Assembly: GCA_902770965.1 (NCBI GenBank)
Contig: CACXUY010000014.1
Span: forward strand, 1,841-65,840
Length of the DNA: 64,000 nucleotides
Reading direction: 5' to 3'
Source of the DNA: an uncultured Lachnospiraceae bacterium
GTDB taxonomy: Bacteria > Bacillota > Clostridia > Lachnospirales > Lachnospiraceae
Shown: piece by piece, positions 33,187 through 56,830 of the stretch
How positions within the stretch are numbered: the first letter of the stretch is position 1
Layout: each line of letters begins with the position of its first letter
Notes under the pieces: model-generated
Database searches by the model: none
Seen by the model: the letters and a program-made list of their open reading frames with translations, nothing else
What the model was told of the DNA's origin: nothing
Position numbers and translations under genes: made by a program

Positions 33187-33200
33187 ATTACAGATAAAGG

Positions 33201-33275: not shown

Positions 33276-33316
33276 AGATAAGGATAATCCTGAACCCGTA
33301 TTGCTGAGGAGTCAAA

Positions 33317-35243: not shown

Positions 35244-35317
35244 CGAGGTGTGGCTCAGCTTGGTAGAGCGCTGCGTTCGGGACGCAGAGGTCGCAGGTTC
35301 AAATCCTGTCGCCTCGA
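35244..35317 (+). tRNA. tRNA-Pro (anticodon CGG)
   Basis: I folded the cloverleaf by hand. The acceptor stem CGAGGTG pairs with CGCCTCG, the D arm is GCTCAGCTTGGTAGAGC, the anticodon stem-loop is CTGCG-TTCGGGA-CGCAG, and the T loop is GGTTCAAATCC. CCA is not encoded. Confidence 0.9.
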
Positions 35318-35368
35318 CTTGGACGCATTTCCTACTTGCGTCGAGACAATTTAATATTTATAACATGT

Positions 35369-35440
35369 GGTTCCTTGGTCAAGCGGTTAAGACGCCGCCC
35401 TCTCACGGCGGAAACAGGGGTTCGATTCCCCTAGGGACTA
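35369..35440 (+). tRNA. tRNA-Glu (anticodon CTC)
   Basis: The acceptor stem GGTTCCT pairs with AGGGACT (two G-U pairs). The anticodon stem-loop is CCGCC-CTCTCAC-GGCGG, and the T arm is AGGGGTTCGATTCCCCT. Confidence 0.85.
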
Positions 35441-35441
35441 T
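35419..35441 (+). repeat. left copy of 23-bp exact direct repeat (tRNA-Glu 3' end; att-like)
   Basis: GGTTCGATTCCCCTAGGGACTAT is identical to 47088-47110. Imperfect similarity continues for about 60 nt more, through a terminator-like hairpin, on both sides. Confidence 0.9.
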
Positions 35442-35999
35442 TGAAAAAGACCTCTCATCGAAGGTCTTCTTTTTTTGTTTTGGAAGGGGTGAATCAGGGA
35501 AACAGGGGAGTCAGGGTGAGACACGTGGACTCAGGCGAGTCCACATGACTCTTTTGAACATATGTAGTAGAAATATAGGATGGAAGCTGATTCGCGGATC
35601 ATAGACTGTTTTGCAAGCGGCGGTTTGGTTTTTGTTGATACTTATTCCCAGACGTAAGTGCGGGCTCTTTGCAAGGCGTATGTTTACATTAGGTTCATGG
35701 CATCTTATCATTTTAGTATGATATATTGTGTATGAATCACGACATCGCATGAATATATCTTGTAATTAGACGCTCTGTTTGCTATGTTTATTTGGTCAGA
35801 CACGTCGAGACTGATTTGTCAGTAACCCCCCATGCAGGATGCTGCCCCACCATGCATATAAGCCTGGGGGGGTAATGTCCATGCGGGGCATGCACACGGC
35901 CGCGCAGAGGAAGGTGCCGGCTGAATGCGACGCACGGTCGGCGCAGCTCGCCGCAAGCGGCGAGTTTATATAGTAATCATGAACAAGGAGACTTGGAAG

Positions 36000-37031
36000 A
36001 TGTCAAAAATAACACCCACTCCATATCAGGATATTTATTCCGAAATCAAAGATGCGCTATTACTTTCCCGTAACCAGGCCTATAGTGCGGTCAATTTTGC
36101 AATGGTTCAGGCATACTGGCACATTGGGCGAATCATCGTGGAGCACGAGCAGAACGGAAGCCTTCGTTCCGAATATGGAAAGGGTGTGTTGAAGGATGTG
36201 TCAGAACGGCTTCAACAGGAGTTTGGCGATGGGTTTTCTGTTCGGAATCTGCAACAGATGAAAAAGTTCTACGCTACTTTTCCAAATGCGAACGCACTGC
36301 GTACGCAATTGACCTGGACACATTATCGCGCTTTGCTTCGCGTGGAGGATGACATAGCGCGAAACTGGTATATAGAGGAGTGCATTAAATCCGGATGGTC
36401 GAGTCGACAGCTGGAGCGGCAGATTTCCACGTTATACTACGACCGACTTTTGGCTAGCAGGGACAAGTCTTCTGTAATTGCGGAAGCGGGAGAATTGATG
36501 AAACCGCTTGAGGCAGAGAGCTTTATCAAAGACCCTTACGTGTTGGACTTCCTCGATTTGAAAAACTACCCTGCCCTGCGCGAGTCCGATCTGGAACAGG
36601 CATTGATCGACAAATTGCAGGAGTTTCTGCTGGAGCTGGGACGCGGATTCTGCTTTATTGCAAGACAGAAACTCATGCGGTATGAAGACGAGGACTTCTA
36701 TCTTGATCTTGTCTTTTATCACAGCATTTTGAAATGCCACGTACTGATCGATCTGAAAATCGGAAAGCTGACACATGCCGACGTTGGCCAAATGGACAGT
36801 TACATCCGTATGTTTGATGCGCTATACAAAAACGATGACGACAATCCTACGATTGGGATTATCCTTTGTTCTCAGAAAAATGAGGCTATTGTTAAGTATT
36901 CGGTGTTGAACGATGCGAAACAAGTCTTTGCTTCTAAGTACCGTCTGACGTTGCCCACAGCAGAGGAATTGCAACGGGAGATTGAGGAAGAAAGACGAAA
37001 AATCGAGGAAAGAGGGGAATCGAGAAACTGA
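36000..37031 (+). CDS. YhcG-family (DUF1016) PD-(D/E)XK nuclease
   Basis: AVNFAMVQAYWHIGRIIVEHEQNG, LTWTHYRALL, GRGFCFIARQ and DLVFYHSILKCHVLIDLKIGK are typical of YhcG/DUF1016. ATG 36000 follows AAGGAG. Confidence 0.75.
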   Translation: MSKITPTPYQDIYSEIKDALLLSRNQAYSAVNFAMVQAYWHIGRIIVEHEQNGSLRSEYGKGVLKDVSERLQQEFGDGFSVRNLQQMKKFYATFPNANALRTQLTWTHYRALLRVEDDIARNWYIEECIKSGWSSRQLERQISTLYYDRLLASRDKSSVIAEAGELMKPLEAESFIKDPYVLDFLDLKNYPALRESDLEQALIDKLQEFLLELGRGFCFIARQKLMRYEDEDFYLDLVFYHSILKCHVLIDLKIGKLTHADVGQMDSYIRMFDALYKNDDDNPTIGIILCSQKNEAIVKYSVLNDAKQVFASKYRLTLPTAEELQREIEEERRKIEERGESRN

Positions 37032-37043
37032 GGAGGCACATAG

Positions 37044-37511
37044 AATCTCTCTGTGCTACGTTCCCGTGGCAGCTATACCGTCATCGACAAGATCACGGTC
37101 AGTCTGAATATCAAGCGCGATGTCTATGAGGCCGAGTTCTCCAATCTCGGTCTGAAGGCTGTGCCGATTTCTGACGAGTACCCGGATTTGGTGCATCGTG
37201 CAGTTGGATTACGAATACATCGAAGAGGATAAGAAGAACGGCAATCCCATTCAGATTCGGAAGCTGACTCCGATACAGCTTTCCTTGACTGTATGCACTG
37301 CTATATTCCCGGTTGGGAGATTCCAAAGTTTTGTCCGGAGCATTTCACGAATGACTACGGATTCATTACGGACTACCTCGCCGAATATATCCGGGAGCTG
37401 CGGAAGGAACAGTACGGCGATGCGCTGGCTCACTACTTCCACCTTGGAAAAAATCTGAATCAGCGCGACACCATAGCCGTGCGCAGGATAGTTGTATTAA
37501 ACGTCAAATAA
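37044..37511 (+). pseudogene. brxL: remnant of a brxL-type (BREX Lon-like protease, TIGR02688) gene
   Basis: Three frame-shifted pieces. They read VIDKITVSLNIKRDVYEAEFSNLGLKAV (N-terminal region), VQLDYEYIEED...PIQIRKLTPIQ, and DTAFLDCMHCYIPGWEIPKFCPEHFTNDYGFITDYLAEYIRELRK...LGKNLNQRDTIAVR (C-terminal region). The AAA+ core and both gene ends are missing. The match is from my memory of BrxL sequences. Confidence 0.5.
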
Positions 37512-37528
37512 ATAATAGGGGTGGCAAG

Positions 37529-39217
37529 ATGGAAGAAAAAACGGTTTACAGTTATCACACCTTTCTATATCCCTTTTTGTGGAATGACATAGATGGGAAT
37601 CACAGTATTGATGTCTTTGAGACAAAATTAAAACTGGAAAGTGCAGGCTGGTCTCAGGATGATATGGTTTCTAAAAAGAATGGTGAAATTAATCTGACCA
37701 GTGTTGTCAATAATGAGTCCCAAGATGAACAACGACTGGATTATCAGACATTTCAGTATTTTAATCCGGCTGCAAGAAAAGCTCTCTTTCGGGAAGATGG
37801 AGAAATAGTGCATGGTTGGAAGTATCGTTCGGGTGACGTACATAATAAAGCAGAATATAAGATATTTGAAAAAGGAAGCGATAATCCATATGTTTTGAAT
37901 ATAAATCATATCCGTCTCAGACTTTTCAATACCGGTGTAGGGATACTTGTGTTTGAGTTGGAGTACCCTATGCCGAACGAGGGAGTAAAAAAAGCACGGC
38001 AGGATATCAGAGCGATCAACGAGCTTGGTAGAAGAGTTTTTCCGGAGTTCCTTCCTGAACAGCCAGAAATTTTCATGGGAAGCCTTTTTGCCACGAGAAT
38101 AGAAATTGTTGTTGATGAGAATCATTTTGAAGAGAATTTGTACTGTCGTTCGGGGTTGCATGGAGAACAAAGCTACCTTAGAGATCCGTTGCATAAGCAG
38201 AGTTTTTTATTTACGCTTTTAGGCTATGATAGCAATAGTACAATCTCTATAACACCAGCTGTGGATGATAGGATGTTTGTCTGCTGCTGTATAATGGATC
38301 CGGATTATACAGAACATTTTTTATATCGTTCGTATCAGGATCCGTCTTTAGAGAAGACCGAATTATCGGAAGAAGAAAAGAAATTTAGTATGCAAAATAA
38401 GCAGCCTATGTTTCTGGATAACTGGGATGTTGGTACGGAATTATATGCATTGACCAATATTGATTATAAAGATAGCAGTTGTCAGAATCGGGTGATGCTG
38501 AACCAATACTTTGAAGATCAACTATATCTTAGGTGGACTGAGATCGGGTATAGCACGATTTATTCGGTGACAAACCATTCGATGATATGTTTGACCGGAG
38601 ATAGGAAATATGTTACTGCGCCAGTTGTTAATCCTTTCTTGATTGAATATATCCAACTTTGTATATTGGTTCTTGCTCAGAGGGCATCTTTGATAGCCTT
38701 TGATAGCAGAATTACAGAGGCTATTTCCAGGGATGACGAGAAAGAGATTATCACTGACAAGTTGTTAACATTATCCAAAGATTTTGCTAAGTTTCAGGGG
38801 CAAATCCTGATTCCTGAGGCTACTCCTCAAATACAAGGTATAGAGCTTTATGGAAAGCTGCAGAGGATGCTCTTTATTGAAAAACTTCAAAATAACGTAC
38901 TCAGTCAGATGAGCAGTCTTTCTGGAATGGCTCAATATGAGCAGGAACGAAGACAGCAAAAAATGGATAAAGATCTTGAAGAACAACAATTTAAGACAGG
39001 CTTATTCTTCAACGTGATAGCAGCGGTTACGATAGTTTCGGTTCTGATTGATTTATTTAATTATATAGTCTGGTTTGTTTCTCCTCATGATGATATATGT
39101 CTTCCATCATGGTGGATAATGATGATTATTGATGTTATATTGATTTTAACTGTCGCGGGAAGAAGTATAAGCTTGATCCATGATAAAAAGAAGAAGGAGA
39201 AAGAGAAGGATGAGTGA
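37529..39217 (+). CDS. corA: CorA-like membrane protein, candidate type III CRISPR accessory effector
   Basis: 562 aa. It has a large soluble N-terminal region and a predicted long helical segment (KLQNNVLSQMSSLSGMAQYEQERRQQKMDKDLEEQQ). Two TM helices sit at the extreme C-terminus (GLFFNVIAAVTIVSVLIDLFNYIVWFV; WWIMMIIDVILILTVAGRSISLI), followed by a KKKKEKEK tail. There is no GMN motif. Its stop overlaps the cmr1 start. Confidence 0.6.
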   Translation: MEEKTVYSYHTFLYPFLWNDIDGNHSIDVFETKLKLESAGWSQDDMVSKKNGEINLTSVVNNESQDEQRLDYQTFQYFNPAARKALFREDGEIVHGWKYRSGDVHNKAEYKIFEKGSDNPYVLNINHIRLRLFNTGVGILVFELEYPMPNEGVKKARQDIRAINELGRRVFPEFLPEQPEIFMGSLFATRIEIVVDENHFEENLYCRSGLHGEQSYLRDPLHKQSFLFTLLGYDSNSTISITPAVDDRMFVCCCIMDPDYTEHFLYRSYQDPSLEKTELSEEEKKFSMQNKQPMFLDNWDVGTELYALTNIDYKDSSCQNRVMLNQYFEDQLYLRWTEIGYSTIYSVTNHSMICLTGDRKYVTAPVVNPFLIEYIQLCILVLAQRASLIAFDSRITEAISRDDEKEIITDKLLTLSKDFAKFQGQILIPEATPQIQGIELYGKLQRMLFIEKLQNNVLSQMSSLSGMAQYEQERRQQKMDKDLEEQQFKTGLFFNVIAAVTIVSVLIDLFNYIVWFVSPHDDICLPSWWIMMIIDVILILTVAGRSISLIHDKKKKEKEKDE

Positions 39218-40556
39218 TCATCATAATTCACCATATTGTAGGTTAGTAGAACTCCGGCAGTATACTCCTTTATTACATTTTCAGGGAGATACAGAGGGAG
39301 CTTGTTTGCGTGCATCAGAAGTGAAGCCAAAGCTGGATCGTTTCGTGTGGGATTATCTTAACAGAAATCAAATCAGCATTCCGGAAAGTTGGCAGCTTAA
39401 GAACATGGATGAAGAGTCTCCATATGAACCAGCTTTACGATACAAGATGCGGTTTATGGGAAATATGAAGAAAAGAGAAGATAAGAAACATCTTCTTTAT
39501 TTTGCGCAGAACATGGACGGTACTTCAATAGCTTTAGAAAGCTTATCTAATACCAGGATGACGATTATTTCTCTGGTCAAAGATCGTTTGGGAACAGACT
39601 GTCCACTTTACAATAATAAATATTTGGAGAATCCCACTATCTGTGAGTTGATTGACGCATTACTTCCCGCATTCTTCTGTCTGCATTGTTTTGGAACAAG
39701 AAATGGAAAAGGCTTTGGAAGCTTTGAAATCGTAGGAAGTACTATAAGCGATGAGGAGATTGATTACTATAAAGAACGAGATTGTATGAAAGTATACCGT
39801 TTGTCATCCAGTCGAAATTCATATTCGGACATGAATTGTCTGGATGATATTTATGTCCTTTCGGGTATGATGAAGGGCGGTTTTAATCGTCCATATTATA
39901 AAGGAGATATTCAAAAATATCTATGGAGAGAGAACATAGGTTCAGAAAAATCGTTTATAAAGCAAGAGATATTTCCTAATGAGACGGTAAACAACACAGG
40001 AGAATCATTATTGGACTGGTATAATAATGATCTTTGTGGGGGAAGAAATCATAGACCTCAAAAGGTATATAAAAACAATCAATTTCTCCGCGCCATGTTA
40101 GGATTAACTGATCACTATGATTATTTTTTCTACAATAGAAATTTGAAAAAACGCGTAGTTAAAACGATATGGGTAAAGTCGAAAAACAGTGAAATAACAC
40201 GTTTTGCGAATCCTATCCGCTTTAAGCCATGTTCTGGAGGTTTTCGTATACTTGTATACAGGATACCGAATGCGATGTTAAACAAGTCGCAAGCATCGGA
40301 AGACAATGGTTTTGAGTTTTCTTTTAGTTCCAAGCAATATACGCTTTATACACCAGAATTTTTTGATCTTGTGGCTTTTATGCATTATTTCCTTTCTCCG
40401 TTTCACGATAATAAATCGAGAAAGTCGCATAATTGGGAAGCGTTAAAAGATAAAAGTTATCAGCTGTATTATGGCAAAAATAATAGCCAAACTCGGTTTT
40501 TTAATGATACCCTTGATAATCTCCGGATCGCGTATGGATGGGAGGAATCCATATGA
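39210..40556 (+). CDS. cmr1: type III-B RAMP protein Cmr1 (divergent, long)
   Basis: It is the first gene of a cmr1-cas10-cmr3-4-5-6 order. It has YTPLLHFQGD...LRASEVKPKLDRF, the G-rich loop FGTRNGKGFGSF, and RFANPIRFKP. ATG 39210 lies inside ATGAGTGA, overlapping the upstream stop. Confidence 0.6.
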   Translation: MSDHHNSPYCRLVELRQYTPLLHFQGDTEGACLRASEVKPKLDRFVWDYLNRNQISIPESWQLKNMDEESPYEPALRYKMRFMGNMKKREDKKHLLYFAQNMDGTSIALESLSNTRMTIISLVKDRLGTDCPLYNNKYLENPTICELIDALLPAFFCLHCFGTRNGKGFGSFEIVGSTISDEEIDYYKERDCMKVYRLSSSRNSYSDMNCLDDIYVLSGMMKGGFNRPYYKGDIQKYLWRENIGSEKSFIKQEIFPNETVNNTGESLLDWYNNDLCGGRNHRPQKVYKNNQFLRAMLGLTDHYDYFFYNRNLKKRVVKTIWVKSKNSEITRFANPIRFKPCSGGFRILVYRIPNAMLNKSQASEDNGFEFSFSSKQYTLYTPEFFDLVAFMHYFLSPFHDNKSRKSHNWEALKDKSYQLYYGKNNSQTRFFNDTLDNLRIAYGWEESI

Positions 40557-42199
40557 ATAAACAGTATGTAGGTGTTACCATAGGCCCCATTACCGATACA
40601 TTGATGCTCACTTCCTCGCCTGCCGGTCTTTGGGGTGCAAGTTATCTCTTCTCGTGGATTAGCCGTAGATTGATTCATTATTTAGTGGTTGATTATAAGG
40701 TTGAGCAGAGTCGATTTGTAGCCCCCTTTTTCTCAGTGAAGAATAACGAGATCTTTCTTCCTGAAGAAAATGATATCGATTATGAGGATATGTGGAAAAA
40801 GGGAATTGGCCTGTTTCATGATCGTATAATATTCTGTTCAGATAGTTTAACAAACCCACTTGAAATCGTTGCGAAGGCCAGAGAAGCTGTCATTTGCGAA
40901 CTCACAGAAGAAATAGCTAGAATAGAATCTAAAACAGAATCTACGACAAATAAGAAGGATATATATGAGTGGCTGGATGGTTATATACGGATTTATGCTG
41001 TTCAAAGGGAGAGCGCATCTCCACTACTAGATTTGGGTGCTGATCTAAGTGCAATGGAACTGGAACCTCATTTTTTCGGGCTTGAAAAGTATAATCATCT
41101 TTTGGGTATTTTTGAAAATATAATTCCTTGCGATGAAAATCATTCACATATGGAGCTGGGGATGAAAAATAAGCTGATGAAGCAATTCCTGCTCTCTCAT
41201 CGTGATGAAGATGCCTGGGTGCTTTATGATAATAATCATATGATAAAAGATTTACAGGATATCGCAGCGAATGGTGCAAATCCTGTAATGAAACACACTC
41301 AGTATTATGCTGTGCTGAAATCAGACGGAGACAGTATGAGCAAGATACTGGAAAACTTGATTGACGATGAAGAAGTCCGAACCTATAGTAAAAAATGCCT
41401 TGGTTTCTGCGCAAAGGCTGCTCAGCAGATATATAAATACGGCGGTGTGCCTCTTTATGCGGGTGGTGACGACCTGTTGGCTCTTTTGCCGTTAACCGGC
41501 ACGCACCCTGAAAATCATGAGAAATGTACCCTTTTTGGCTTAATAAATTATATACGCACATTGTTTAATGGGGTGTTTAAAGAGGATAGAGAAAGATTTA
41601 ATGGCATGCCGACGATATCTTTTGGTATCTCAATACAATTCTATAAAAGCCCGTTGTTTGAGGCACTGGAGCGAGCAGATGGATTACTGTATCGTGCTAA
41701 ATTGGGATTAAAAGATGCATGCTATCTGCATCTGCAAAAACATAGTGGACAATCTGTATTGTTTACCGAAGAACGTCTTAATTACGTTAATGAAGAAGGC
41801 GACAATTTGATTTCCGCTTTGGACAAGTTGTTAACAAATACGAGAATCGGTGATATCAATAATGACGATGCTGTTCTTTTTCTGTCTGGTCTAGGATTTA
41901 CATTGGAACAATATAAAAATTTGTTTTACCTGGCTATCGAAAAGACAAAGCGAACAGATGCGATTTTAGAGAATCTGTTCGCTAATCTCTTTAGCAATGT
42001 GGATCAAAAACAATTTGAACCTTATATAACCGAAATAAAAAAATTGACAGTGCAGCTCATCAGAAAGAATAGTGAGAATGAAGCAAAGGCAAAAAGAAGG
42101 CAGAATGAAGCAAATCAGGGCGAAGGAGTTATGTCTCAGCTTCAGGCCATAATTCGACTATTGCATTTTATGAGAGAGGGGGGAGCAGAGAAAGAATGA
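40553..42199 (+). CDS. cas10: Cas10/Cmr2 large subunit lacking the HD domain
   Basis: It starts directly with the Cmr2 block YVGVTIGPITDTL...GLWGASYLFSWI. It has YYAVLKSDGDSMSKIL, the cyclase motif LYAGGDDLLALLP (GGDD at 41462-41473), and ISFGISIQFYKSPLFEALERADGLLYRAK. It is only ~548 aa with no HD-type N-terminus. Confidence 0.8.
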   Translation: MNKQYVGVTIGPITDTLMLTSSPAGLWGASYLFSWISRRLIHYLVVDYKVEQSRFVAPFFSVKNNEIFLPEENDIDYEDMWKKGIGLFHDRIIFCSDSLTNPLEIVAKAREAVICELTEEIARIESKTESTTNKKDIYEWLDGYIRIYAVQRESASPLLDLGADLSAMELEPHFFGLEKYNHLLGIFENIIPCDENHSHMELGMKNKLMKQFLLSHRDEDAWVLYDNNHMIKDLQDIAANGANPVMKHTQYYAVLKSDGDSMSKILENLIDDEEVRTYSKKCLGFCAKAAQQIYKYGGVPLYAGGDDLLALLPLTGTHPENHEKCTLFGLINYIRTLFNGVFKEDRERFNGMPTISFGISIQFYKSPLFEALERADGLLYRAKLGLKDACYLHLQKHSGQSVLFTEERLNYVNEEGDNLISALDKLLTNTRIGDINNDDAVLFLSGLGFTLEQYKNLFYLAIEKTKRTDAILENLFANLFSNVDQKQFEPYITEIKKLTVQLIRKNSENEAKAKRRQNEANQGEGVMSQLQAIIRLLHFMREGGAEKE

Positions 42200-43368
42200 A
42201 ATATTGGAAAATAACCCTAAAACCTTTAGATGCTTATTTCCTGGGAGGGGAGCGAAATGTATTTTATCAAAACAATCCGGTACAACGTTCCGAACGAAGA
42301 CCTTATTTTATTCGTTCCAATCATATGATTTCACAGTCCGCTGCGTTTGGAGTACTACGATATCTAGGTATTCATAGCCCAAATGCTAATTATCGTTTGT
42401 CGTCTGAGGATATAAAAAATATAGGAGACAGAAGCTTTAGCATCACACGAAACCAACAAGGATACGGTCGCATATGCAGTATTTCCCCCGTGTTTCTATG
42501 TGATCAGGAAGGTAAACGGTACGTAGCTGCTCCGTGTAATCGTGTTAAGGCTGATTTTGAATGCTGCTATGATAAAGAGCATCCAAAGATGCCGTTTGTT
42601 TCCTTTGAAGCCTTCCGACGTGTAATAACCATGGATGGTACACGGTATTTACCATCTGAGTATAATGAGAAAAGGGCTTGTGACCCATCAGATCTGCTAT
42701 GCTTAGAAACAGGTGACGTCATATCATCCCCTTTTTCTACTCAGATACGTACGGGAATCAATAGAGAAAGTCAAAAGCTAAAGCAAAATGGAAATCTGTC
42801 GGACGATAATCCTAGTGGTTTCTTTAAGAAGGAATATATTGTTCTGGATAGAGACTATTCCTTCATGTTTTATGCTGAAACAGAAGATGGTTTTTTTATT
42901 CACCGTGATACAGTGGTTTACATAGGACAGGGAAGAACGCCTTTTTCTGCTCATGCAGAAGATGCACAGAAAAAGTGGGATATTGATTTACCGGTTTGTT
43001 GCCGACCGTCAGTTGGAGCAAAATGGGAAAGCGCAACGGTAATTTCTGACATGTTCTTTGATGGGCATATAAAAGAACTAAAAAGGCTGTGCTCATTGAT
43101 GATTTCATCTATCAGGGATCATCGGTGTATGGAAACAAATTACTCGGCAGAAAATGCGGGCAACCGATATAGTAAAAAGGAAGCATTAAAACTGATACCT
43201 GCCGGTAGTGTGTTTTTGTTTATGGGAGACGATAACGGTAAAGAACCGAAGGATCAGCTTTGTCATTTTCGAAATACGCTGATAAAAACCCGTTATTGGG
43301 ATAGCGCTTTGCGCGCCGGCTTCAATTATGTACTATATAGCGATATTCAACAGAATGGAGGACAATGA
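42196..43368 (+). CDS. cmr3: type III-B RAMP protein Cmr3
   Basis: ITLKPLDAYFLGGERNVF...SQSAAFGVLRY (Cmr3 N-terminal pattern), ISPVFL, and its position after cas10. It has an ATGA overlap with cas10. Confidence 0.7.
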   Translation: MKYWKITLKPLDAYFLGGERNVFYQNNPVQRSERRPYFIRSNHMISQSAAFGVLRYLGIHSPNANYRLSSEDIKNIGDRSFSITRNQQGYGRICSISPVFLCDQEGKRYVAAPCNRVKADFECCYDKEHPKMPFVSFEAFRRVITMDGTRYLPSEYNEKRACDPSDLLCLETGDVISSPFSTQIRTGINRESQKLKQNGNLSDDNPSGFFKKEYIVLDRDYSFMFYAETEDGFFIHRDTVVYIGQGRTPFSAHAEDAQKKWDIDLPVCCRPSVGAKWESATVISDMFFDGHIKELKRLCSLMISSIRDHRCMETNYSAENAGNRYSKKEALKLIPAGSVFLFMGDDNGKEPKDQLCHFRNTLIKTRYWDSALRAGFNYVLYSDIQQNGGQ

Positions 43369-44171
43369 TTATGTCAAATATACTGTATAGGTTAACATGC
43401 CTTACCAACCTTCATATGGGGAGCGGAGATATAAACTATGATGTGATAGACTTGGAAGTAGAGCGCGATCCGGTATTAATGGAGCCAACAATGAATGCTA
43501 GCGGTGTCAAAGGTGCCCTTCGGGATTATTGTAAGAAAACTATGTCTGATGATGATTTGCTGTTTGTATTTGGCGGCAAAGCAAAAAATGATGATGATAA
43601 CGGAGCTCAAAGAAATAATCAAGGGACACAGCAGGGGTTTTACAATTTTTTTTCCGGAGATATGTTGGCTCGTCCTATAAGAATATCTGAAGGAGAAGGG
43701 GCATATCTGCTTGCTACAACGCCAGATATTCTCAAAACGCTTTTGCGTAAATTACATGCGTTTGGGTTTTGCATCGGCTATAATGAGAATGATATTCCGG
43801 CTCTGCCGCAAGATGGTTCTGTACTATCCCCGGTAAATATCATAAGTGTTGAAGGACAAAAAGTTACAAATGGAACGTGCGCATATTTATCTGCTCTTCT
43901 TGGATCTGACCATTGGGTTTTGATGAGCAGTCAACAGTTAAGGGATATTGATCTGCCGGTTTTAGCTCACAATGTATTGGAGGATGGTATCAGCAAGAAT
44001 CTATGGTATGAGCAGGTTGTTCCTCATGAGAGTGTTTTCTTGCTGATCATATCAGGACTGGAAAACGACGATAGATTAAGTAAGACGTTAACTAAAAAGT
44101 GCATGGTTCAGTTTGGCGCGGGAGCTACCACTGGAAACGGTTATACCTTGATGGAACAACTGGAGGTATAA
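43365..44171 (+). CDS. cmr4: type III-B backbone RAMP Cmr4
   Basis: CLTNLHMGSGD...VIDLEVERDPV...ASGVKGALRDY (RAMP motif with candidate catalytic Asp) and the C-terminal G-rich loop FGAGATTGNGYT. Confidence 0.75.
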   Translation: MIMSNILYRLTCLTNLHMGSGDINYDVIDLEVERDPVLMEPTMNASGVKGALRDYCKKTMSDDDLLFVFGGKAKNDDDNGAQRNNQGTQQGFYNFFSGDMLARPIRISEGEGAYLLATTPDILKTLLRKLHAFGFCIGYNENDIPALPQDGSVLSPVNIISVEGQKVTNGTCAYLSALLGSDHWVLMSSQQLRDIDLPVLAHNVLEDGISKNLWYEQVVPHESVFLLIISGLENDDRLSKTLTKKCMVQFGAGATTGNGYTLMEQLEV

Positions 44172-44175
44172 ACAC

Positions 44176-44601
44176 ATGAACAAGAAATTAGTGAATGAAC
44201 TCATTCCTTTAGCATATCAGGAATTAGATTCAGTAGGTATTGCTCAGAACGGTGAGATCTCAAAGGGCTTTCGTGGCCAGATTGCTTCTTTTGGTGCAGC
44301 AATAGCCACAGGGTCTTTGCTGGCGGCATCGGCATTCTTTAATGATCAGGGCGGCTCTAAGAGTGAACGCCATAAGCTAATGGTGGCCATTAACAATATG
44401 TTGGCTTACAAGGATATGGAGAATGGTTGCTTAGTACAAAATCAAGGAAATACCTTATTTGATACTGTAAAAATATGGATGAAGGCTCACAATGGTTCTG
44501 ATAGGGAGATTAAAGAAAAAGTGCTTTCGTGTGCCATAGCCTTAAAACTTGCCATGAATCTTTACTCACTGAAACCAGAGAAAAAGAATAAAAAAGGCTA
44601 A
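44176..44601 (+). CDS. cmr5: type III-B small subunit Cmr5
   Basis: 141 aa and helical. FRGQIASFGAAIATGSLLAASAFF resembles the Cmr5 core. It lies between cmr4 and cmr6. Confidence 0.65.
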   Translation: MNKKLVNELIPLAYQELDSVGIAQNGEISKGFRGQIASFGAAIATGSLLAASAFFNDQGGSKSERHKLMVAINNMLAYKDMENGCLVQNQGNTLFDTVKIWMKAHNGSDREIKEKVLSCAIALKLAMNLYSLKPEKKNKKG

Positions 44602-44622
44602 TTTTGCGGAGGAGGATCATTC

Positions 44623-45540
44623 TTGAACCAGCATTATGAATTTTGGGTAAAATACTATGAGAGGTTGATAGAATCCGATACTGCATTTGCTGAAGCGCTT
44701 AATATTAATAATGAAAATTTGACGAAACGCATTTGGAAAACAGGAAATCGGGAAATCCTTCCGGGATGCAATGAAGAACCCTTCTCTGGCTGCAAACATC
44801 TACGATTGGAGGTGAATTATCCTGGCTTGTTAGTAGGCATAGGAAACGCTCATGACAGTGGGAAGAAATTTGAAGATAAAGACAAAACCGACAGGACAAA
44901 AAAGAAAGATAAGAAAAAGGATACACCAGAAGAAATAAAACTGGGAATACTATTAGACTCAGTAACCGGTTTGCCGTTTTTACCTGGAAGCATGTTGAAG
45001 GGGATATTGCGCTCGGCATTCTTATATAATGTTGATTATATTAAAGATTTGCTTCAGTATATAGATTCTTCTTTATTGCTGACCGCCGAACAGGTAGAAG
45101 AATTAGAACTGGATATTTTCGGACATCAACACCCTTGCCATAATTATGAAACCGATATCGAAGCAGGGACAGGAAGAGATGTTTTTTTTGATGTTTATCC
45201 AATTCAGCCGGATGGGAAAAGTCATCTGATTGGTATAGAAAACATCACATCTCACCGTGCTAAAAACCGTAAGCTCGATGGCTTAACAAAACTCAATCCA
45301 CTTACGCTGCTAAAGATTATGCCGGGAGTAGTGCTTTTGTTTAGGTTTTATCTGAATGATACTGATTTAAAAGATGGAATCAGGATTACAGCAAATCATA
45401 AATTAAATCTTTTTAAACAGATACTGCTTGATTTGGGCGCTGGTGCAAAGACAAATGTGGGCTTTGGCGTGTTGACAGATACGAAAAACCCTGAGGAAAC
45501 GGACAAGTATTATTATCTGGAAGAAATGCACAGAGATTAA
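44623..45540 (+). CDS. cmr6: type III-B RAMP protein Cmr6
   Basis: GLPFLPGSMLKGILRSAF, DIFGH, DVFFDVYP and the G-rich loop LGAGAKTNVGFGVL. The TTG start is 7 nt after GGAGGAGG. Confidence 0.75.
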   Translation: MNQHYEFWVKYYERLIESDTAFAEALNINNENLTKRIWKTGNREILPGCNEEPFSGCKHLRLEVNYPGLLVGIGNAHDSGKKFEDKDKTDRTKKKDKKKDTPEEIKLGILLDSVTGLPFLPGSMLKGILRSAFLYNVDYIKDLLQYIDSSLLLTAEQVEELELDIFGHQHPCHNYETDIEAGTGRDVFFDVYPIQPDGKSHLIGIENITSHRAKNRKLDGLTKLNPLTLLKIMPGVVLLFRFYLNDTDLKDGIRITANHKLNLFKQILLDLGAGAKTNVGFGVLTDTKNPEETDKYYYLEEMHRD

Positions 45541-45564
45541 GAACTAAAATCATCATTTAGTAGA

Positions 45565-45594
45565 AACCTCCTGGTCCATCTCAGGAGGTTTTTT
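45565..45594. terminator. bidirectional terminator between cmr6 and the convergent DUF3791 gene
   Basis: AACCTCCTG (45565-45573) pairs with CAGGAGGTT (45582-45590), then TTTT. The same hairpin recurs at ~48962-48990. Confidence 0.65.
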
Positions 45595-45799
45595 CTGATA
45601 CTCTCTTATAATAATCCCTAAAATAATCCGGTCCCTCTGCCCAAAGTGCTGAATCGAAATCGAGCAGGCATTCGTAAGCTTTTGATTCAAGGACTTCTTT
45701 TCTGATTTCGTCAATTGGTTTTCCACTTTCGGCGGCCATATCTTCAATAGCAAGGGCTAATGTCAGAGCAGCGCATGTATTCATTGTTTCATATGACAT
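45581..45799 (-). CDS. DUF3791-like small protein
   Basis: 72 aa. It lies downstream of, and overlaps, a DUF3990-like gene, which is the triad arrangement I recall from Clostridia. Confidence 0.5.
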   Translation of the reverse strand: MSYETMNTCAALTLALAIEDMAAESGKPIDEIRKEVLESKAYECLLDFDSALWAEGPDYFRDYYKRVSEKTS

Positions 45800-46367
45800 A
45801 TTTCCTCGCCTCCTGAAACATCAGACAGCTTATAACTTTTTCAGTCAAGAAGCAGAACTGATCTTCAAGCTTATCAGGCAAAAGCCTTTTGATTGTATCA
45901 TTTATCGCTTCGTCAGATTCTATATCTCCATACAATTCGCCAAGATAAGCTGTGATGGTTGTATTTGTTTTATCATTTGCAACTTTTCCGATAATGATTT
46001 CCGCACTAAATATTCTGGGGTCAATTCCTGGTTTTAGTTGCGTGGCAAGATGTTCTCGTCTGTTCTGCGCGATAAACCAGAGCCATTCTTTATTAGTTGT
46101 AGGAAATTCATAAAAATCTATTCCCTCTTTCGGTGCTTTGAATCTAAAGGATAAAACAAAACCAAAGTCTTGGTCCATCGGCAAATCGCCAGTATTTACT
46201 GCTTTTCGTATGGATGATTTAATAAAAAGCCGGGCTTGATTTAGGTTCGAAGTCAGATAAAAGCCCTTACCAAAATCCTTACCTTTATTGCACATCGAAA
46301 GGTCGATTGTCTCAACAGGGGCATAGCTTCCGTGAAACAGGAGCATGCCGTCTCTTAACTTGGTCAT
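45789..46367 (-). CDS. DUF3990-domain protein
   Basis: MTKLRDGMLLFHGSYAPVETIDLS...GKDFGKGFYLTS is a typical DUF3990 N-terminus. It has an ATGA overlap with the upstream DUF3791 gene. Confidence 0.6.
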   Translation of the reverse strand: MTKLRDGMLLFHGSYAPVETIDLSMCNKGKDFGKGFYLTSNLNQARLFIKSSIRKAVNTGDLPMDQDFGFVLSFRFKAPKEGIDFYEFPTTNKEWLWFIAQNRREHLATQLKPGIDPRIFSAEIIIGKVANDKTNTTITAYLGELYGDIESDEAINDTIKRLLPDKLEDQFCFLTEKVISCLMFQEARKYVI

Positions 46368-46576
46368 ACACATGCCCCCTTTTTCTGTAGAATGCGAACG
46401 ATACCATTGAGAATATACTCGTCACCGTTCATGTGAAGAACATCATAGCACTCTTCGATATATTTCCAGATGCCATAGTTTTCAAATAAGCGATTAGCGT
46501 CCGCAGGTTTCAAATTAAATTTACGAACGAAATCACTAAAAACCCTTGCTTCCATAAACAGTATCTCATTAACCAT
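46364..46576 (-). CDS. DUF3791-like small protein
   Basis: The start is MVNEILFMEARVFSDFVRKF, preceded by GGAGGA. The ORF-track N-terminal extension has no support. Confidence 0.55.
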   Translation of the reverse strand: MVNEILFMEARVFSDFVRKFNLKPADANRLFENYGIWKYIEECYDVLHMNGDEYILNGIVRILQKKGACV

Positions 46577-47087
46577 GACCGTATCCTCCGTAGAAAAGCA
46601 TAACATATTTATCTGATAACATAAAGAACGATTTTTACTGTTTACTAGAAGGTATTCCGGTATGAAGGGAAAAAAGGTGGTTTTCAGCGGGATCAAAGGA
46701 TCCTGCCGGTTTTCCGGAGTTGACCGTACCGCTCTTGCGTTGCTCGCCGTAGGCGAGTTGCTCCACATTGGAAAAAATAGCAGCTTTAGATTTGGACGTT
46801 ATACCATGCTGAGTCCTCGAGACTAGCTGGGCGAATCAAGGGCGAGCGGACGGCAGGGACTGTTCTGTTGTCCGCTTTTAAATCTGATACAAGATACAGG
46901 ATGTCCGCAAATAACACCAGAATATTGGTGGATTCTTGGTGAACATGGTGCCAATATATCAATAAAAAAACTAATCAGGTTAGAAAAAGTATAGCATGAC
47001 CGTGCAAAACATGGGCAGAAATTACTATATAGTTTGACAAATCGATATACAGAACAAAATAATTCAAAATTGTTCTGCAAATGCAAT

Positions 47088-47110
47088 GGTTCGATTCCCC
47101 TAGGGACTAT
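47088..47110 (+). repeat. right copy of 23-bp exact direct repeat (partial tRNA-Glu 3' end; att-like)
   Basis: GGTTCGATTCCCCTAGGGACTAT has no tRNA 5' half upstream. It is followed by a hairpin (AAAAAGACCTCTCAGCAGAGGTCTTTTT) similar to the one after the intact tRNA-Glu. Confidence 0.9.
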
Positions 47111-47388
47111 CTAAAGAAAAAGACCTCTCAGCAGAGGTCTTTTTCATTTTCGGAGGAGGGGTGAGTAATCCGGGCTCCGGGTACCAGCAATCCGCAAATG
47201 GATATCGATATACCGGAGTATGATATCGGGCGATTCAAAACATTCAGTCCGCCTAAGCGTACTTTTTATTCGCCAATGATACCATCCTGACATAGAATGA
47301 TGCCAGGCAATCAGTGCCTGCATTCAATCCTGAATCGCCTTATCAAGGATTGAGTGTTGAAAATAGAGGAAGTTCACATGTACCGGCA

Positions 47389-47417
47389 TTGACATTATAC
47401 CGGTTGACCGTTATAAT
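47389..47417 (+). promoter_or_regulatory. consensus sigma70 promoter upstream of the HTH/NTase pair
   Basis: TTGACA at 47389-47394, a 17-nt spacer, and TATAAT at 47412-47417. TACCGG(N)TTGAC direct repeats overlap the promoter and may be an operator. Confidence 0.6.
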
Positions 47418-47438
47418 GTTATGGAAGGCAGGTGAAGA

Positions 47439-48011
47439 ATGATGACCATCCGAGAGAAATTAAAAGATAAAAACATGTCTGTATACCGGCTTGCCAAAGC
47501 TAGCGAGCTTCCCTATGCGACTGTAAACGATATTTGCAGCGGCAAAGCGCAGCTGGAAAAATGCAGCGCCGAAACGATCTATAAGATTGCCAAAGCACTG
47601 GACGTTCCCATGGAGGAACTGCTTGCCCCCTGCTTCCTCAAACGCAGCAGTTTTGAAAACTTCAAAAGCAATATCTGCCACCGAGTCAAAGAGCTGGGCG
47701 ATATAGACTTTCTTATCGAAACGCTGGAGAGCCATGACATCCGGACCTATTATGAGCGGAAATGGTATCCTGAAAGCCTTTACCTCCTTGCCATGCTGGA
47801 CTATATCAGCCGGGAAAATGATGTTCCCCTTGTCAGCGAATACGACGACATCAGGCGGTGCAGGCTGGAAAAACCGGTTTATCCGGCCAGTCTCCGGGCT
47901 GTTTCAGCGGCGGCCAGAAGCGACGCCGCGCTGAAAGAGGCAGAGAAAACGGCGATCCCGGAGTTTATGCGGTTTAACATTATAGAAAGCGAAGTGCGAA
48001 ATGTCATCTGA
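47439..48011 (+). CDS. XRE-family HTH protein (putative antitoxin/regulator)
   Basis: The N-terminal HTH reads MSVYRLAKASELPYATVNDICSGK...TIYKIAKALDVPMEELL. The stop overlaps the next start by 11 nt. Confidence 0.65.
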   Translation: MMTIREKLKDKNMSVYRLAKASELPYATVNDICSGKAQLEKCSAETIYKIAKALDVPMEELLAPCFLKRSSFENFKSNICHRVKELGDIDFLIETLESHDIRTYYERKWYPESLYLLAMLDYISRENDVPLVSEYDDIRRCRLEKPVYPASLRAVSAAARSDAALKEAEKTAIPEFMRFNIIESEVRNVI

Positions 48012-48774
48012 ACGCAGCGTTGAGTTTACAAAAGACAATATTGACATCTACTTGAAAGAGGTTGCGAAGGAATACCGGAAACAGGTTGGGAAGGGAATGC
48101 CCGCCGAACTGATCCTGATCGGCGGTGCTTCCGTCCTGATCAATTACGGATTCAGAAATATGACCACCGATATAGACGCCTTGATCCGGGCGGCTTCCAG
48201 CATGAAGGATGCGATTAGCAGGGTTGGTGATCGTTTTGGCCTTCCCACCGGCTGGCTGAACGCCGACTTCAAGAACACGGACTCCTACACCCCGAAGCTC
48301 GAAGAGTTTTCCTCCTATTACAGAACCTATTCCAACGTACTGTCAATCCGTACCGTGAAAGCGGAATATCTGATTGCCATGAAACTGCGATCCGGCAGAC
48401 AGTATAAGAGTGACCTGTCCGATGTGCTGGGCATTCTGGCGGAACATGAAAAAAGAGGAACGCCTATCACGATGGAGCAGATACGAAAAGCCGTGACTGA
48501 CCTGTACGGCGACTGGACATCTCTTTCGGATGTGTCTCAGGCGTTTATAGAAAATGTCATGGCGGACGGACGGTTTGAACAGCTTTATGTGCAGACGGCC
48601 CAGGGTGAGAAGGAAACGAAGGAACTTCTGATCCGGTTTGAGAAGGACTATCCGGGCGTAACGAAGGAGTCCAATGTGGACGCTATCGTCGGTAATCTTC
48701 AAAAGAAAGCGGATAAAGCTTCCATCCTTGCCCAGCTTCGGCAAAAGAAGTCCAAAGGCATGGAGACAATTTAG
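48001..48774 (+). CDS. Pol-beta-fold nucleotidyltransferase-like protein (DUF6036/AbiEii-like), putative toxin
   Basis: LILIGGASVLINYGFRNMTTDIDAL matches the GG/GS-x(n)-DxD nucleotidyltransferase pattern. AEYLIAMKLRSGRQYKSDLSD is typical of this family. It is translationally coupled to the HTH gene. Confidence 0.55.
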   Translation: MSSERSVEFTKDNIDIYLKEVAKEYRKQVGKGMPAELILIGGASVLINYGFRNMTTDIDALIRAASSMKDAISRVGDRFGLPTGWLNADFKNTDSYTPKLEEFSSYYRTYSNVLSIRTVKAEYLIAMKLRSGRQYKSDLSDVLGILAEHEKRGTPITMEQIRKAVTDLYGDWTSLSDVSQAFIENVMADGRFEQLYVQTAQGEKETKELLIRFEKDYPGVTKESNVDAIVGNLQKKADKASILAQLRQKKSKGMETI

Positions 48775-48957
48775 GAGAAGAACCCGCGAAAGAGGAATGA
48801 CCGGGAAAGATAACCGAATATTGAGCTTGATACTAGATCGGGCCGGGAATGTTCAGACCGGAATATTCAGAGGGGTGACTCACCCCTCCTCGAGATATTT
48901 TATGATGCCGTCTGCGGAGATCTTGGCCTGGCAGACGATGAAAGATTTCTTTAAGCT

Positions 48958-49527
48958 GAAAAACCTCCTGATCCATCTCAGGAGGTTTTTTCTGATACCT
49001 TCTTATAGTAATCTCTAAAATAATCCGGTCCTTCTGCCCAAAGCGCTGAATCGAAATCGAGCAGGCATTCGTAAGCTTTTGATTCAAGAACGTCTTTTCT
49101 GATTTAGTCAATTGTTTTTCCGCTTTCGGCAGCCATGTCTTCAATAGCAAGGGTTAATGTCAAAGCAGCGCATGTGCTCATTGCGTCATATGACATATTT
49201 TTTCGCCTCCTCAAACATCAGACAACTGATAGCCTTTTCAGTCAAGAAGCAGAACTGATCTTCAAGCTTATCAGGCAAAAACCTTTTAATTGTAGTTTCC
49301 GTGAAACAGGAGCATGCCGTCTCTTAACTTGGTCATACACATGCCCCCTTTTTCTGTAGAATGCGAACGATATCATTGAGAATATACTCGTCACAGTTCA
49401 TGTGAAGAACATCATAGCACTCTTCGATATATTTCCAGATGCCATAGTTTTCAAATAAGCGATTAGCGTCCGTAGGTTTCAAATTAAACTTACGAACAAA
49501 ATCACTAAAAACCCTTGCTTCCATTTC
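48958..49527 (-). pseudogene. decayed second copy of the DUF3791-DUF3990-DUF3791 cassette
   Basis: It is collinear with 45561-46560 at high identity. The DUF3990 body is deleted, with a junction near 49295 leaving only MTKLRDGMLLFHG. The distal DUF3791 is disrupted, while the proximal DUF3791 (49333-49524) is nearly intact. Confidence 0.75.
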
Positions 49528-49603
49528 ATATTTTCATCCCATGAGGGCGGAAAAGTGAGCGTTAACCGGCCAGTCAGTGGCCGTTGATTTGTCAGTGATC
49601 GTC

Positions 49604-50791: not shown

Positions 50792-50834
50792 GGTATGACC
50801 TCCTTTTTTGCAAATATGTTTCTTGCAAAATGTG

Positions 50835-50910
50835 CTATTATTCAGCGCCTATCACCGCCCTGCAACGAGGGATGCGCAGCATCCTGAGTCTGAGGCGCTG
50901 AATAATTACC
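50835..50910 (+). repeat. dispersed inverted-repeat element, family 1 (full copy)
   Basis: CTATTATTCAGCGCCTATCACCGCCCTGCAACGAGGGATGCGCAGCATCCTGAGTCTGAGGCGCTGAATAATTACC. The termini are ATTATTCAGCGCC and GGCGCTGAATAAT. Confidence 0.85.
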
Positions 50911-56823: not shown

Positions 56824-56830
56824 CATTATA

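Follow-up and report, generated by a model that had tools for sequence, protein, structure and literature searches.

A CorA-type III-B CRISPR effector operon on a decayed tRNA-Glu island, most likely left without its guide-RNA and signal-degrading parts by rearrangement

[quoted passage not shown] The III-B system of Marinomonas mediterranea, a stand-alone effector module, draws on I-F arrays in this way, and such use by type III systems was reportedly described by Silas and colleagues in 2017 (both cited in PMC11229360). CorA-type III-B systems have been characterized in Bacteroides fragilis, where NrN accompanies the Cmr and CorA genes (Chi et al. 2023, PMC10600005), and in Clostridium botulinum, where the partner is a SAM-AMP lyase (PMC12255297; PDB 9gad). 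The CorA/SAM-AMP literature describes an obligate association of CorA effectors with NrN, DEDD or a lyase, and has the degrading enzyme as needed for immunity (PMC10600005, PMC12255297), a role understated in the first-pass annotation of the present locus, which treated the enzyme as a mere off-switch. The only reconstituted CorA system gave no immunity unless a degrading enzyme was co-expressed, and CorA by itself proved toxic.

The effector operon and its island

The region examined here, within a 64-kb window (the whole stretch of DNA analysed), is a small defence island held by some strains of the species and missing from others. It chiefly carries a CRISPR effector operon of the CorA type III-B, in the SAM-AMP signalling class. 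The CorA-type III-B identity had been proposed in the first-pass annotation and is upheld by Pfam, NCBIfam and PADLOC, which recovered seven intact genes, all on the forward strand, in the order corA-cmr1-cas10-cmr3-cmr4-cmr5-cmr6. The CRISPR-associated CorA-like membrane effector (37529-39217; 562 aa) is full length (PADLOC CorA 5e-65, residues 3-551), has two TM helices at its C-terminus and is 41-49 % identical to CorA of the related loci L009, L010 and L091. Cmr1 (39210-40556; 448 aa; PADLOC Cmr1 7e-57 and gene call) is followed by a Cas10/Cmr2 of 548 aa without an HD domain (40553-42199; TIGR02577 5e-26, PF22335 8e-23), and then by Cmr3 (42196-43368; PADLOC Cmr3 7e-20), the Cas7 backbone protein Cmr4 (43371-44171; TIGR02580 3e-26 and PADLOC Cmr4), Cmr5 (44176-44601; PADLOC Cmr5 6.5e-39) and Cmr6 (44623-45540; TIGR01898 2.7e-21). 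Cas10 displays GGDD at residues 304-307, and its D90 and E169, in alignment columns invariant among relatives, align with D70 and E151 of B. fragilis Cas10 (profile alignment to PDB 9lq5_B, E=1.5e-72), the two acidic residues defined as marking SAM-AMP synthases (PMC10600005). Outside conspecifics, the closest Cas10 in a search of 5.8 billion proteins was 49 % identical.

The island spans 11,669 nt repeat-to-repeat (35442-47110) and is integrated at the 3' end of a tRNA-Glu (CTC) gene (35368-35441, forward strand; ARAGORN), which lies downstream of a tRNA-Pro (CGG) gene (35244-35318, forward strand; ARAGORN and Rfam RF00005, 65 bits). The last 23 nt of tRNA-Glu form the left att-like direct repeat (GGTTCGATTCCCCTAGGGACTAT; 35419-35441), identified as an exact repeat by blastn and repeat search; the island body (35442-47087, no strand assigned) was delimited by empty-site alignments and tRNA calls, and ends at an attR-like second copy of the repeat (47088-47110, forward strand; repeat search), directly 3' of which stands the native terminator hairpin (47111-47149). 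Two conspecific contigs (L109 and L112) display the precise empty site, with tRNA-Glu followed directly by window position 47088 onward and flanks 99 % identical, whilst two others (L095 and L098) carry a third copy of the repeat core with a different element upstream, a tandem second element. The island has no integrase or integrase remnant; an integrase is present 5 kb upstream of corA in the related locus L091. Between tRNA-Glu and corA lies a DUF1016/YhcG PD-(D/E)xK nuclease gene (36000-37031, forward strand; PF06250 1e-57, PF17761 2e-46) matching PDC-S02, a single-gene candidate of PADLOC (2e-144), which is not conserved beside cmr in relatives, tblastn matches being confined to identical contigs. 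The next interval, 37032-37528, had been read as non-coding and in fact holds a BrxL (BREX Lon-like) fragment of 72 codons (37293-37511, forward strand), corresponding to approximately residues 354-420 of 680 (PF13337 6e-24; PADLOC BrxL 5e-32). The island has thus decayed, as seen in the missing integrase, the BrxL fragment and a cas6 3' stump. Beyond its right end, an HTH (XRE) and DUF6036 nucleotidyltransferase pair (47439-48774, forward strand; Pfam, L104-L112 contexts) is chromosomal and found in strains both with and without the island. Neither the tRNA-Glu island with its empty site in sister strains, nor the cas6 stump, nor the PDC-M13-like cassette described below featured in the first-pass annotation.

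The slot past cmr6 and the missing parts

In all of the closest Cas10 relatives (37-49 % identity; L007, L008, L010, L009 and L089), DEDD lies directly past cmr6, followed by Cas6 in L009 and fused to it in L089. In the window, this slot, where DEDD is often followed by cas6 in the nearest relatives, is filled on the opposite strand by an orf72-DUF3990-DUF3791 cassette (copy A, 45564-46576, reverse strand; PF13151 7e-30, PF12668 2e-14) comprising orf72 (45581-45799), DUF3990 (45789-46367) and DUF3791 (46364-46576), which matches PDC-M13 (PADLOC PDC-M13A/B/C). Abutting it, 1.1 kb past cmr6 and on the strand of the cmr operon, is a cas6 3' stump holding the last ~55 of ~310 codons (46644-46826). 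Three independent profiles assign it to the very C-terminal end of a Cas6 of ~310 aa, namely PF10040 (E=2.3e-5, positions 51-89 of 89), PADLOC Cas6 (E=2.5e-10, positions 248-294 of 296) and our own Cas6 HMM (E=8.5e-15, positions 252-306 of 310), and tblastn matched it to full-length Cas6 of L055, L083, L079 and L046. The truncation point falls inside 46577-46643. A six-frame HMM search of the window gave no match to canonical Cas6, and no N-terminal cas6 remnant in any frame. The earlier statement that no ORF resembles Cas6 was therefore wrong, as was the description of 46577-47438 as non-coding; 48775-49603, similarly described, holds a degenerate chromosomal second copy of the cassette (copy B, 48961-49524, reverse strand). 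Detected through direct repeats with copy A, copy B lies 3.4 kb away, is 91-97 % identical, has lost the middle of DUF3990 (equivalent to 45898-46323) and also occurs in island-free strains.

The position of copy A, exactly in the relatives' DEDD slot, raises the question of whether one of DUF3990, DUF3791, orf72 and the DUF1016 nuclease degrades SAM-AMP in place of DEDD, as an unrecognized off-switch. In the CorA locus L042, too, a DUF3990 gene directly follows the array, and the predicted DUF3990 model (pLDDT 91.6) suggests a nucleotide-binding ART/PARP-like fold. That match is weak, however (E ~1e-3, TM 0.35-0.44), and no SAM-AMP lyase or phosphodiesterase is known to have such a fold; DUF3990 of copy A is frameshifted in L096-L100 despite an intact cmr operon, the same cassette stands on the chromosome of island-free strains, the family is widespread across Clostridia without CRISPR context and is listed by PADLOC as a separate candidate defence system, the cassette runs opposite to the cmr operon, and no relative keeps DUF1016 alongside cmr. 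We regard replacement as very unlikely, the least probable of the accounts weighed here.

Other claims of the first-pass annotation held in the window. TRF, repeat search and our own k-mer chain detector, which as a positive control recovered arrays in ~50 related loci, found no repeat-spacer periodicity in the 64 kb, and TRF showed the tandem repeats elsewhere to be contiguous units without spacers. Between 35 and 50 kb, Rfam at a permissive E-value returned the two tRNAs only, and the clade's 8-nt crRNA handle ATTGAnAC was absent. No orphan repeat was found either. Scans of essentially every window ORF of at least 140 aa with Pfam, NCBIfam and PADLOC found no Cas1, Cas2, CARF, DHH/NrN or MYG1, and there was no ring nuclease in the 64 kb; six-frame searches of the window with HMMs built from relatives, as was that for canonical Cas6, gave no match to DEDD, SAM-AMP lyase, Cas1 or Cas2 in any frame. 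Overall, the 35 kb upstream of the module and the 17 kb downstream of it are free of any array, functional cas6 or degrading enzyme. The claim that the window has no dedicated off-switch accordingly stands as regards SAM-AMP-degrading enzymes, although it had left DEDD, the clade's usual enzyme, out of account.

Secondary loss and its alternatives

On balance we favour secondary loss, on a defence island that is decaying, with a rearrangement as the most likely cause of the missing guide-RNA and signal-degrading parts. [quoted passage not shown] The cas6 stump indicates that the locus formerly had crRNA processing and, together with the inserted PDC-M13-like cassette and the tRNA-Glu island with its empty site, argues for secondary loss rather than a purpose-built array-less module. 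Past cmr6, the ancestral locus would have carried a SAM-AMP phosphodiesterase of the DEDD type, cas6 and probably an array; this order rests on analogy rather than on a direct ancestor, because the stump belongs to the PF10040 type of ~310 aa whilst the nearest Cas10 relatives use a canonical Cas6 of ~240 aa. A rearrangement would then have put the opposite-strand PDC-M13 cassette into the slot of these genes and deleted the phosphodiesterase together with ~250 codons of cas6 and whatever array there was.

In ~14 conspecific contigs the seven effector ORFs are intact without exception, and the architecture is fixed across them, including the stump. Between strains, the operon displays ~0.1 % divergence versus ~1 % in flanking chromosomal genes, with synonymous to nonsynonymous counts of 4:5 and 24:8, respectively, which do not differ significantly (Fisher p=0.11). 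We infer that the effector genes have stayed intact owing to the recent date of the rearrangement and of the spread of the island. Intact ORFs and fixed architecture nevertheless also fit a selected, trans-served module, and two further observations count against secondary loss: the bare corA-cmr1-6 layout recurs in L029, L062 and L066, and the protein search offered no Cas10 relative closer than 49 %.

If the module works, a crRNA-loaded Cmr complex would bind foreign RNA, Cas10 would join SAM and ATP into SAM-AMP, and SAM-AMP would open CorA and damage the membrane. For this, other parts of the genome would have to provide crRNA and a Cas6-type processing enzyme, and probably also an enzyme to degrade SAM-AMP; without such supply the module would be an orphan heading to pseudogenization. 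A working trans-dependent system, taking crRNAs and Cas6 from another CRISPR-Cas locus of the same genome, with SAM-AMP degraded elsewhere or its degradation unneeded in the native host and with the local loss of cas6, DEDD and array tolerated through redundancy, is possible, if rather doubtful. The operon and its catalytic signatures are kept in all strains seen, array use in trans is established for type III systems in general, and 7/32 related CorA loci with good flanking sequence are without an array within ~5-9 kb, among them L009, which keeps cas6. L089, outside the 32-locus set with only ~0.4 kb of upstream sequence, likewise keeps cas6 without an array. Three of the 32 (~10 %; the unrelated loci L029, L062 and L066) are completely bare, with corA-cmr1-6 between housekeeping genes, suggesting that a bare module may be viable, and the window module is another of these. 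Against trans-dependence stand the empty surroundings of the module, the enzyme requirement and CorA toxicity of the sole reconstituted system, and the general decay of the island.

The first-pass annotation had offered either borrowed crRNA and Cas6 or an array-less module with a non-canonical role; the array-less relatives leave room for the former, but nothing supports a regulatory role. A purpose-built unit with crRNA-independent activation or a regulatory role would account for the absent array and cas6 and for the bare modules of three other lineages, yet the stump records past crRNA processing, the crRNA-binding and measuring proteins Cmr1, 3, 4, 5 and 6 are all kept in standard form, patchiness of the island among strains fits poorly with housekeeping regulation, and the operon has no conserved new domain or partner gene. 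We consider this very unlikely.

Comparison with known systems

The window shares the cmr1-6 set with the B. fragilis III-B system (PMC10600005), as well as an HD-less Cas10 with GGDD, the acidic pair of the acceptor site, and a CRISPR-type CorA membrane effector adjoining the cmr genes, the likeness of its Cas10 to the 600-aa PDB chain 9lq5_B being a profile-level match only (clade profile). In contrast to that system, it has no NrN or other SAM-AMP-degrading enzyme, only a stump of cas6 and no array, cas1 or cas2, and its corA lies upstream of cmr1. With the C. botulinum system (PMC12255297; PDB 9gad) it has in common a CorA and Cmr operon in Clostridia, but no window frame contains a homologue of the lyase; such homologues are present in the relatives L043, L048 and L093. 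Firmicutes CorA III-B loci with DEDD (e.g. Streptococcus oralis/mitis, Ruminococcus and Butyricicoccus MAGs; L009, L010 and L053-L082) belong to the same Cas10 clade (27-49 % identity) and have the same effector gene set; the partner in that clade is usually DEDD, and its crRNA repeats terminate in ATTGAnAC, whereas the window is without DEDD, functional cas6 and array and has an unrelated opposite-strand cassette in the post-cmr6 slot. Stand-alone modules of the M. mediterranea type resemble the window in that the effector operon comes with neither an array nor adaptation genes of its own. The window differs from them in its signalling class, which reportedly depends on a dedicated degrading enzyme, likewise absent here, and in its cas6 stump, which documents secondary loss.

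Effector operon and signalling class

Profile searches identified a co-oriented operon, corA-cmr1-cas10-cmr3-cmr4-cmr5-cmr6, on the forward strand of the window. The first gene, corA (37529-39217, +), matched the PADLOC CorA profile over residues 3-551, its full length (E=5e-65), with no extra fused domain found along that profile, and its CRISPR-associated CorA-family membrane protein product adjoins cmr1 (39210-40556, +), cas10/cmr2 (40553-42199, +; TIGR02577, E=5e-26), cmr3 (42196-43368, +), cmr4 (43371-44171, +; TIGR02580, E=3e-26), cmr5 (44176-44601, +) and cmr6 (44623-45540, +; TIGR01898, E=3e-21). PADLOC profiles identified cmr1, cmr3 and cmr5. The type III-B (Cmr) effector set of Cmr1, Cas10/Cmr2, Cmr3, Cmr4, Cmr5 and Cmr6 is therefore complete within one operon, with PADLOC matching 6/6 components and the NCBIfam equivalogs for Cas10, Cmr4 and Cmr6 exceeding cutoff.

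The Cas10 protein is short (548 aa) and without an HD domain, its sole Pfam domain matches being Cmr2_N and palm2. The palm is intact, with GGDD at residues 304-307, and these residues were invariant, together with D90 and E169, in an alignment of 41 members of the Cas10 clade. The profile built from this alignment matched PDB 9lq5_B (600 aa) end to end (E=1.5e-72), aligning D90 with D70 (GLFPDRY) and E169 with E151 (NIIENQ). In BfrCas10, D70 and E151 form the acidic acceptor-site pair that is the signature of a SAM-AMP-making Cas10 (Chi et al. 2023, PMC10600005). Because D90 and E169 fall on this pair, the predicted identity of the operon as a CorA-type III-B system of the SAM-AMP-signalling class (the CorA-1 cluster of Chi et al. 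2023) is sound. The same call had been made in the first-pass annotation of this DNA, and it is upheld by the profile matches, the HD-less Cas10, the GGDD motif and the D90/E169 pair.

Array, adaptation and degradation genes

No repeat-spacer array was found in the 64-kb window by TRF, a spacing-limited repeat search or a k-mer chain detector, the last of which was validated by its recovery of arrays in approximately 50 related loci. TRF returned contiguous tandem repeats only, and an Rfam search at permissive thresholds between 35 and 50 kb returned two tRNAs and nothing else. The repeats of arrays in this clade terminate in the crRNA handle ATTGAnAC, which was not found between 35 and 50 kb. 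In a search of the window for orphan or degenerate repeats with the consensus sequences of 60 repeats of related arrays, neither blastn-short nor ungapped scanning (identity of at least 65 %) gave more than chance matches. The annotation had described the locus as lacking an array and the tandem repeats as contiguous units without spacers, and both descriptions held, the first under TRF, the repeat search, the k-mer detector, Rfam, and the handle and consensus scans, the second under TRF. Two such tandem repeats, each of contiguous units without spacers, were found. One, at 56829-56972 (35 nt, 4.1 copies), lies between two ABC-transporter genes; the other, at 63805-63962 (23 nt, 6.9 copies), covers the 3' end of an ORF (62999-63817) and runs just past it. 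A dispersed, GC-rich palindromic intergenic repeat of approximately 80 nt, present at 14738-14815, 33196-33276 (inverted) and 50833-50911 with 82-86 % identity, looks REP- or MITE-like and is unrelated to CRISPR. Only one further gene of a mobile element was noticed in the 64 kb, an IS630-like DDE_3/HTH_32 transposase-like ORF (6542-7387, -).

A Pfam search of essentially all window ORFs of at least 140 aa found no Cas1, Cas2, CARF, DHH/DHHA1 or MYG1 domain, and placed housekeeping genes outside the island. We also searched the window in six frames with HMMs built from relatives for DEDD, canonical Cas6, a long Cas6 type, Cas1/RT-Cas1, Cas2 and SAM-AMP lyase; for the last of these, the seed was validated against PDB 9gad (E=2e-18). 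One model matched, and the match was to a 3' remnant of cas6. Neither Pfam nor the six-frame Cas1/RT-Cas1 and Cas2 models detected cas1/cas2 adaptation genes in the window; no SAM-AMP-degrading enzyme (DHH/DHHA1, MYG1 or DEDD) was found among its ORFs by Pfam, NCBIfam or PADLOC, and no remnant of a DEDD or SAM-AMP lyase gene was detected by HMM in any frame. Thus, the absences listed in the first-pass annotation were confirmed for Cas1 and Cas2 (by Pfam, NCBIfam and PADLOC as well as the six-frame models), for CARF and DHH/NrN (by the three profile collections) and for any degrading enzyme near the operon (including the six-frame DEDD and lyase models), but not for cas6, of which a stump is present.

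Type III loci without an array are well known and ordinary; of the two absences, that of a degrading enzyme is more unusual. Chi et al. (PMC10600005) describe an obligate association of CorA with NrN, DEDD or lyase, and both St Andrews papers (PMC10600005 and PMC12255297) report that in the reconstituted system there was no immunity without a degrading enzyme and that CorA alone was toxic. We compared the window with 80 loci from GTDB species representatives and several metagenome contigs, approximately 75 of which encode CorA; these relatives are Clostridia of the gut and rumen. A DEDD exonuclease of approximately 170 aa, carrying the motifs FVDAETDGL and HDAMNDV and matching PADLOC DEDDh, was present in 28 loci, whilst three loci (L043, L048 and L093) encoded a SAM-AMP lyase and one (L017) a MYG1-like protein. 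Scanning the ORFs of the related loci for a DHH...GG[GH]H motif revealed no NrN; the clade's degrading enzymes comprise DEDD, SAM-AMP lyase and, for L017, the MYG1-like protein. In every close relative DEDD directly follows cmr6, either alone (L007, L008 and L010), followed by Cas6 (L009) or as a DEDD-Cas6 fusion (L089), the two being joined there in one 413-aa protein. In several of the closest relatives, Cmr6 also carries a fused S1 RNA-binding domain at its C-terminus, giving a protein of approximately 400 aa (L007:8209-9438, L089:7243-8457) versus 305 aa in the window. A further protein, of approximately 415 aa, is encoded repeatedly in the SAM-AMP-type Cas10 clade (L007:1562-2827, L008, L090:7633-8877, L022, L026, L028, L033, L045, L059 and L087) and has a Card1-like PD-(D/E)xK endonuclease domain at its C-terminus (PF09002, E=9e-5). 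In L007 and L008, which have the closest Cas10 (49 % identity), it occurs together with DEDD and without any CorA, and it may act in SAM-AMP signalling as a second effector, of the nuclease type.

Cas6 stump, cassette and tRNA-Glu island

The cas6 remnant at 46644-46826 (+) encodes the final 55 or so residues of a Cas6 of approximately 310 aa. Three profiles recognized it, namely our long-Cas6 HMM (positions 252-306 of 310, E=8.5e-15), Pfam PF10040 (positions 51-89 of 89, E=2.3e-5) and PADLOC Cas6 (positions 248-294 of 296, E=2.5e-10), and the full-length Cas6 proteins of four related loci (L055, L083, L079 and L046) align with it at their G-rich C-terminal loop. Public gene callers also marked it on identical contigs. 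The N-terminal part was absent from every frame of the window by HMM, and a functional cas6 was thus not found there. The earlier statement that no ORF resembles Cas6 is contradicted by this stump, which lies inside a stretch (46577-47438) that had been read as non-coding. Two other stretches read in this way contain gene remnants, a 72-codon piece of a BrxL gene (37293-37511) and a second, internally deleted copy (48961-49524) of the cassette described below. Beside the BrxL fragment, in the spacer between DUF1016 and corA, four strain contigs (L001, L095, L096 and L098) carry a 29-nt insertion relative to window position 37186, and on contigs with this insertion gene callers give a 99-aa minus-strand ORF instead of the BrxL fragment.

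An opposite-strand cassette, orf72-DUF3990-DUF3791 (45564-46576), abuts the stump and takes the position after cmr6 that DEDD holds in close relatives. Its genes match the A, B and C components of the PADLOC candidate defence system PDC-M13 (DUF3990, 8e-30; DUF3791, 9e-12; orf72, 8e-4). The second copy at 48961-49524, a chromosomal paralogue 3.4 kb downstream, is 91-97 % identical and is also found in island-free strains. We considered whether DUF3990 might be a hidden degrading enzyme substituting for DEDD. This is unlikely, given that DUF3990 is frameshifted in strains L096-L100, in which cmr is intact, that its predicted structure (pLDDT 91.6) bears only a weak likeness to PARP/ADP-ribosyltransferase catalytic domains (E of approximately 1e-3, TM 0.35-0.44), that the family is common in Clostridia outside any CRISPR context and that the cassette corresponds to a separate PADLOC candidate system.

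The operon, cassette and stump lie on an 11.67-kb island. The final 23 nt of tRNA-Glu(CTC) at 35419-35441 recur exactly at 47088-47110, and a similar terminator hairpin follows each copy. Two contigs of the same species (L109 and L112; flank identity 99 %) represent the empty site, in which tRNA-Pro and tRNA-Glu are followed directly by sequence corresponding to window position 47088 onward, with the 11.67-kb segment precisely missing. A small indel polymorphism lies beside the att site, as the alignment of these two island-free contigs jumps from 47216 to 47378, the intervening 160 nt or so (47217-47377, upstream of an HTH gene) being replaced or absent. The island comprises, in order, a DUF1016/YhcG nuclease gene (PADLOC candidate PDC-S02), the BrxL fragment, corA-cmr1-6, the opposite-strand cassette, the cas6 stump and a 260-nt spacer. 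Strain contigs L095 and L098 have the att core (21 nt) a third time (L095:770-790, L098:99-119), upstream of the island and beside a different element, which is situated between tRNA-Glu and the cmr island and carries a group II intron (L095:300-467, -; RF02001, 118 bits); this therefore indicates that islands are stacked in tandem at the tRNA-Glu att site. No integrase domain was present in any island ORF. In a related locus, L091 (Cas10 46 % identical), genes for an integrase and an HTH_17 protein lie approximately 5 kb upstream of corA, and tblastn with this integrase gave no match or remnant.

Taken together, what survives here, on a small tRNA island that is decaying and has no integrase, is the effector core of a CorA-type III-B locus. 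In the simplest and most likely reading, a rearrangement involving the cassette would have removed the phosphodiesterase, any array and approximately 250 codons of cas6. This is an ordinary explanation for what is missing, rearrangement of an island in decay being the most likely cause of the losses. The suggestion that the system was purpose-built without an array did not survive, as what remains is the core of a stripped locus with a cas6 stump.

Recurrence and status of the module

We searched for a closer, undeleted version of the locus in a collection of 5.8 billion proteins and found none, the next Cas10 being 49 % identical. A metagenome scan with the cas6 stump and a viral-contig scan with the Cas10 profile gave no match, and the island was absent from GTDB species representatives (best match 38 %). 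We compared gene content across 32 CorA loci flanked on each side by 4 kb or more: an array was present in 25, cas6 in 24 and DEDD in 12; seven had no array, and three (L029, L062 and L066) were without array, cas6 or DEDD, lying directly between housekeeping genes or beside an IS605 TnpB gene. Array-less and even bare modules therefore recur, with fully bare corA-cmr1-6 modules in roughly one in ten loci.

All seven ORFs were intact in approximately 14 conspecific contigs from different samples, each with the same cassette and stump. The operon differed from that of one of these strains (L096) by approximately 0.1 % (four synonymous and five non-synonymous substitutions in 9 kb), compared with approximately 1 % for flanking chromosomal genes (24 synonymous and eight non-synonymous in 3.7 kb). 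This difference in divergence indicates an island that is young or has spread recently. The operon's larger proportion of non-synonymous changes was not significant (Fisher p=0.11), the substitutions being too few to tell purifying from relaxed selection, and evolution has not yet had time to report on the function of the module.

Secondary loss leaving a probably orphaned module is the reading we favour, albeit with moderate confidence. Intact ORFs and a complete effector set would also be seen in a functional, trans-dependent system, which is possible but less probable alongside a truncated cas6 and no degrading enzyme; more exotic readings, even taken jointly, are very improbable. One specific form of function, a naturally minimal SAM-AMP system in which corA-cmr1-6 alone gives immunity, with crRNAs captured from another CRISPR locus of the host and with either no dedicated degrading enzyme or use of a host one, appears improbable. 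If true, it would run counter to reports that NrN, DEDD or lyase is obligately required, and would provide a natural setting for asking why degradation is needed.

Under the favoured reading of secondary loss, the locus is still a natural case of an intact effector and CorA without degrading enzyme, cas6 or array, and the bare L029, L062 and L066 look alike. Were such modules inert, they would form a record of CRISPR effector modules stripped and orphaned on small defence islands; active ones, by contrast, could reveal whether native hosts truly require degradation. The main value of the locus is as a natural CorA module without a degrading enzyme, in which the unexplained requirement for SAM-AMP degradation in the reconstituted system (PMC10600005, PMC12255297) could be tested.
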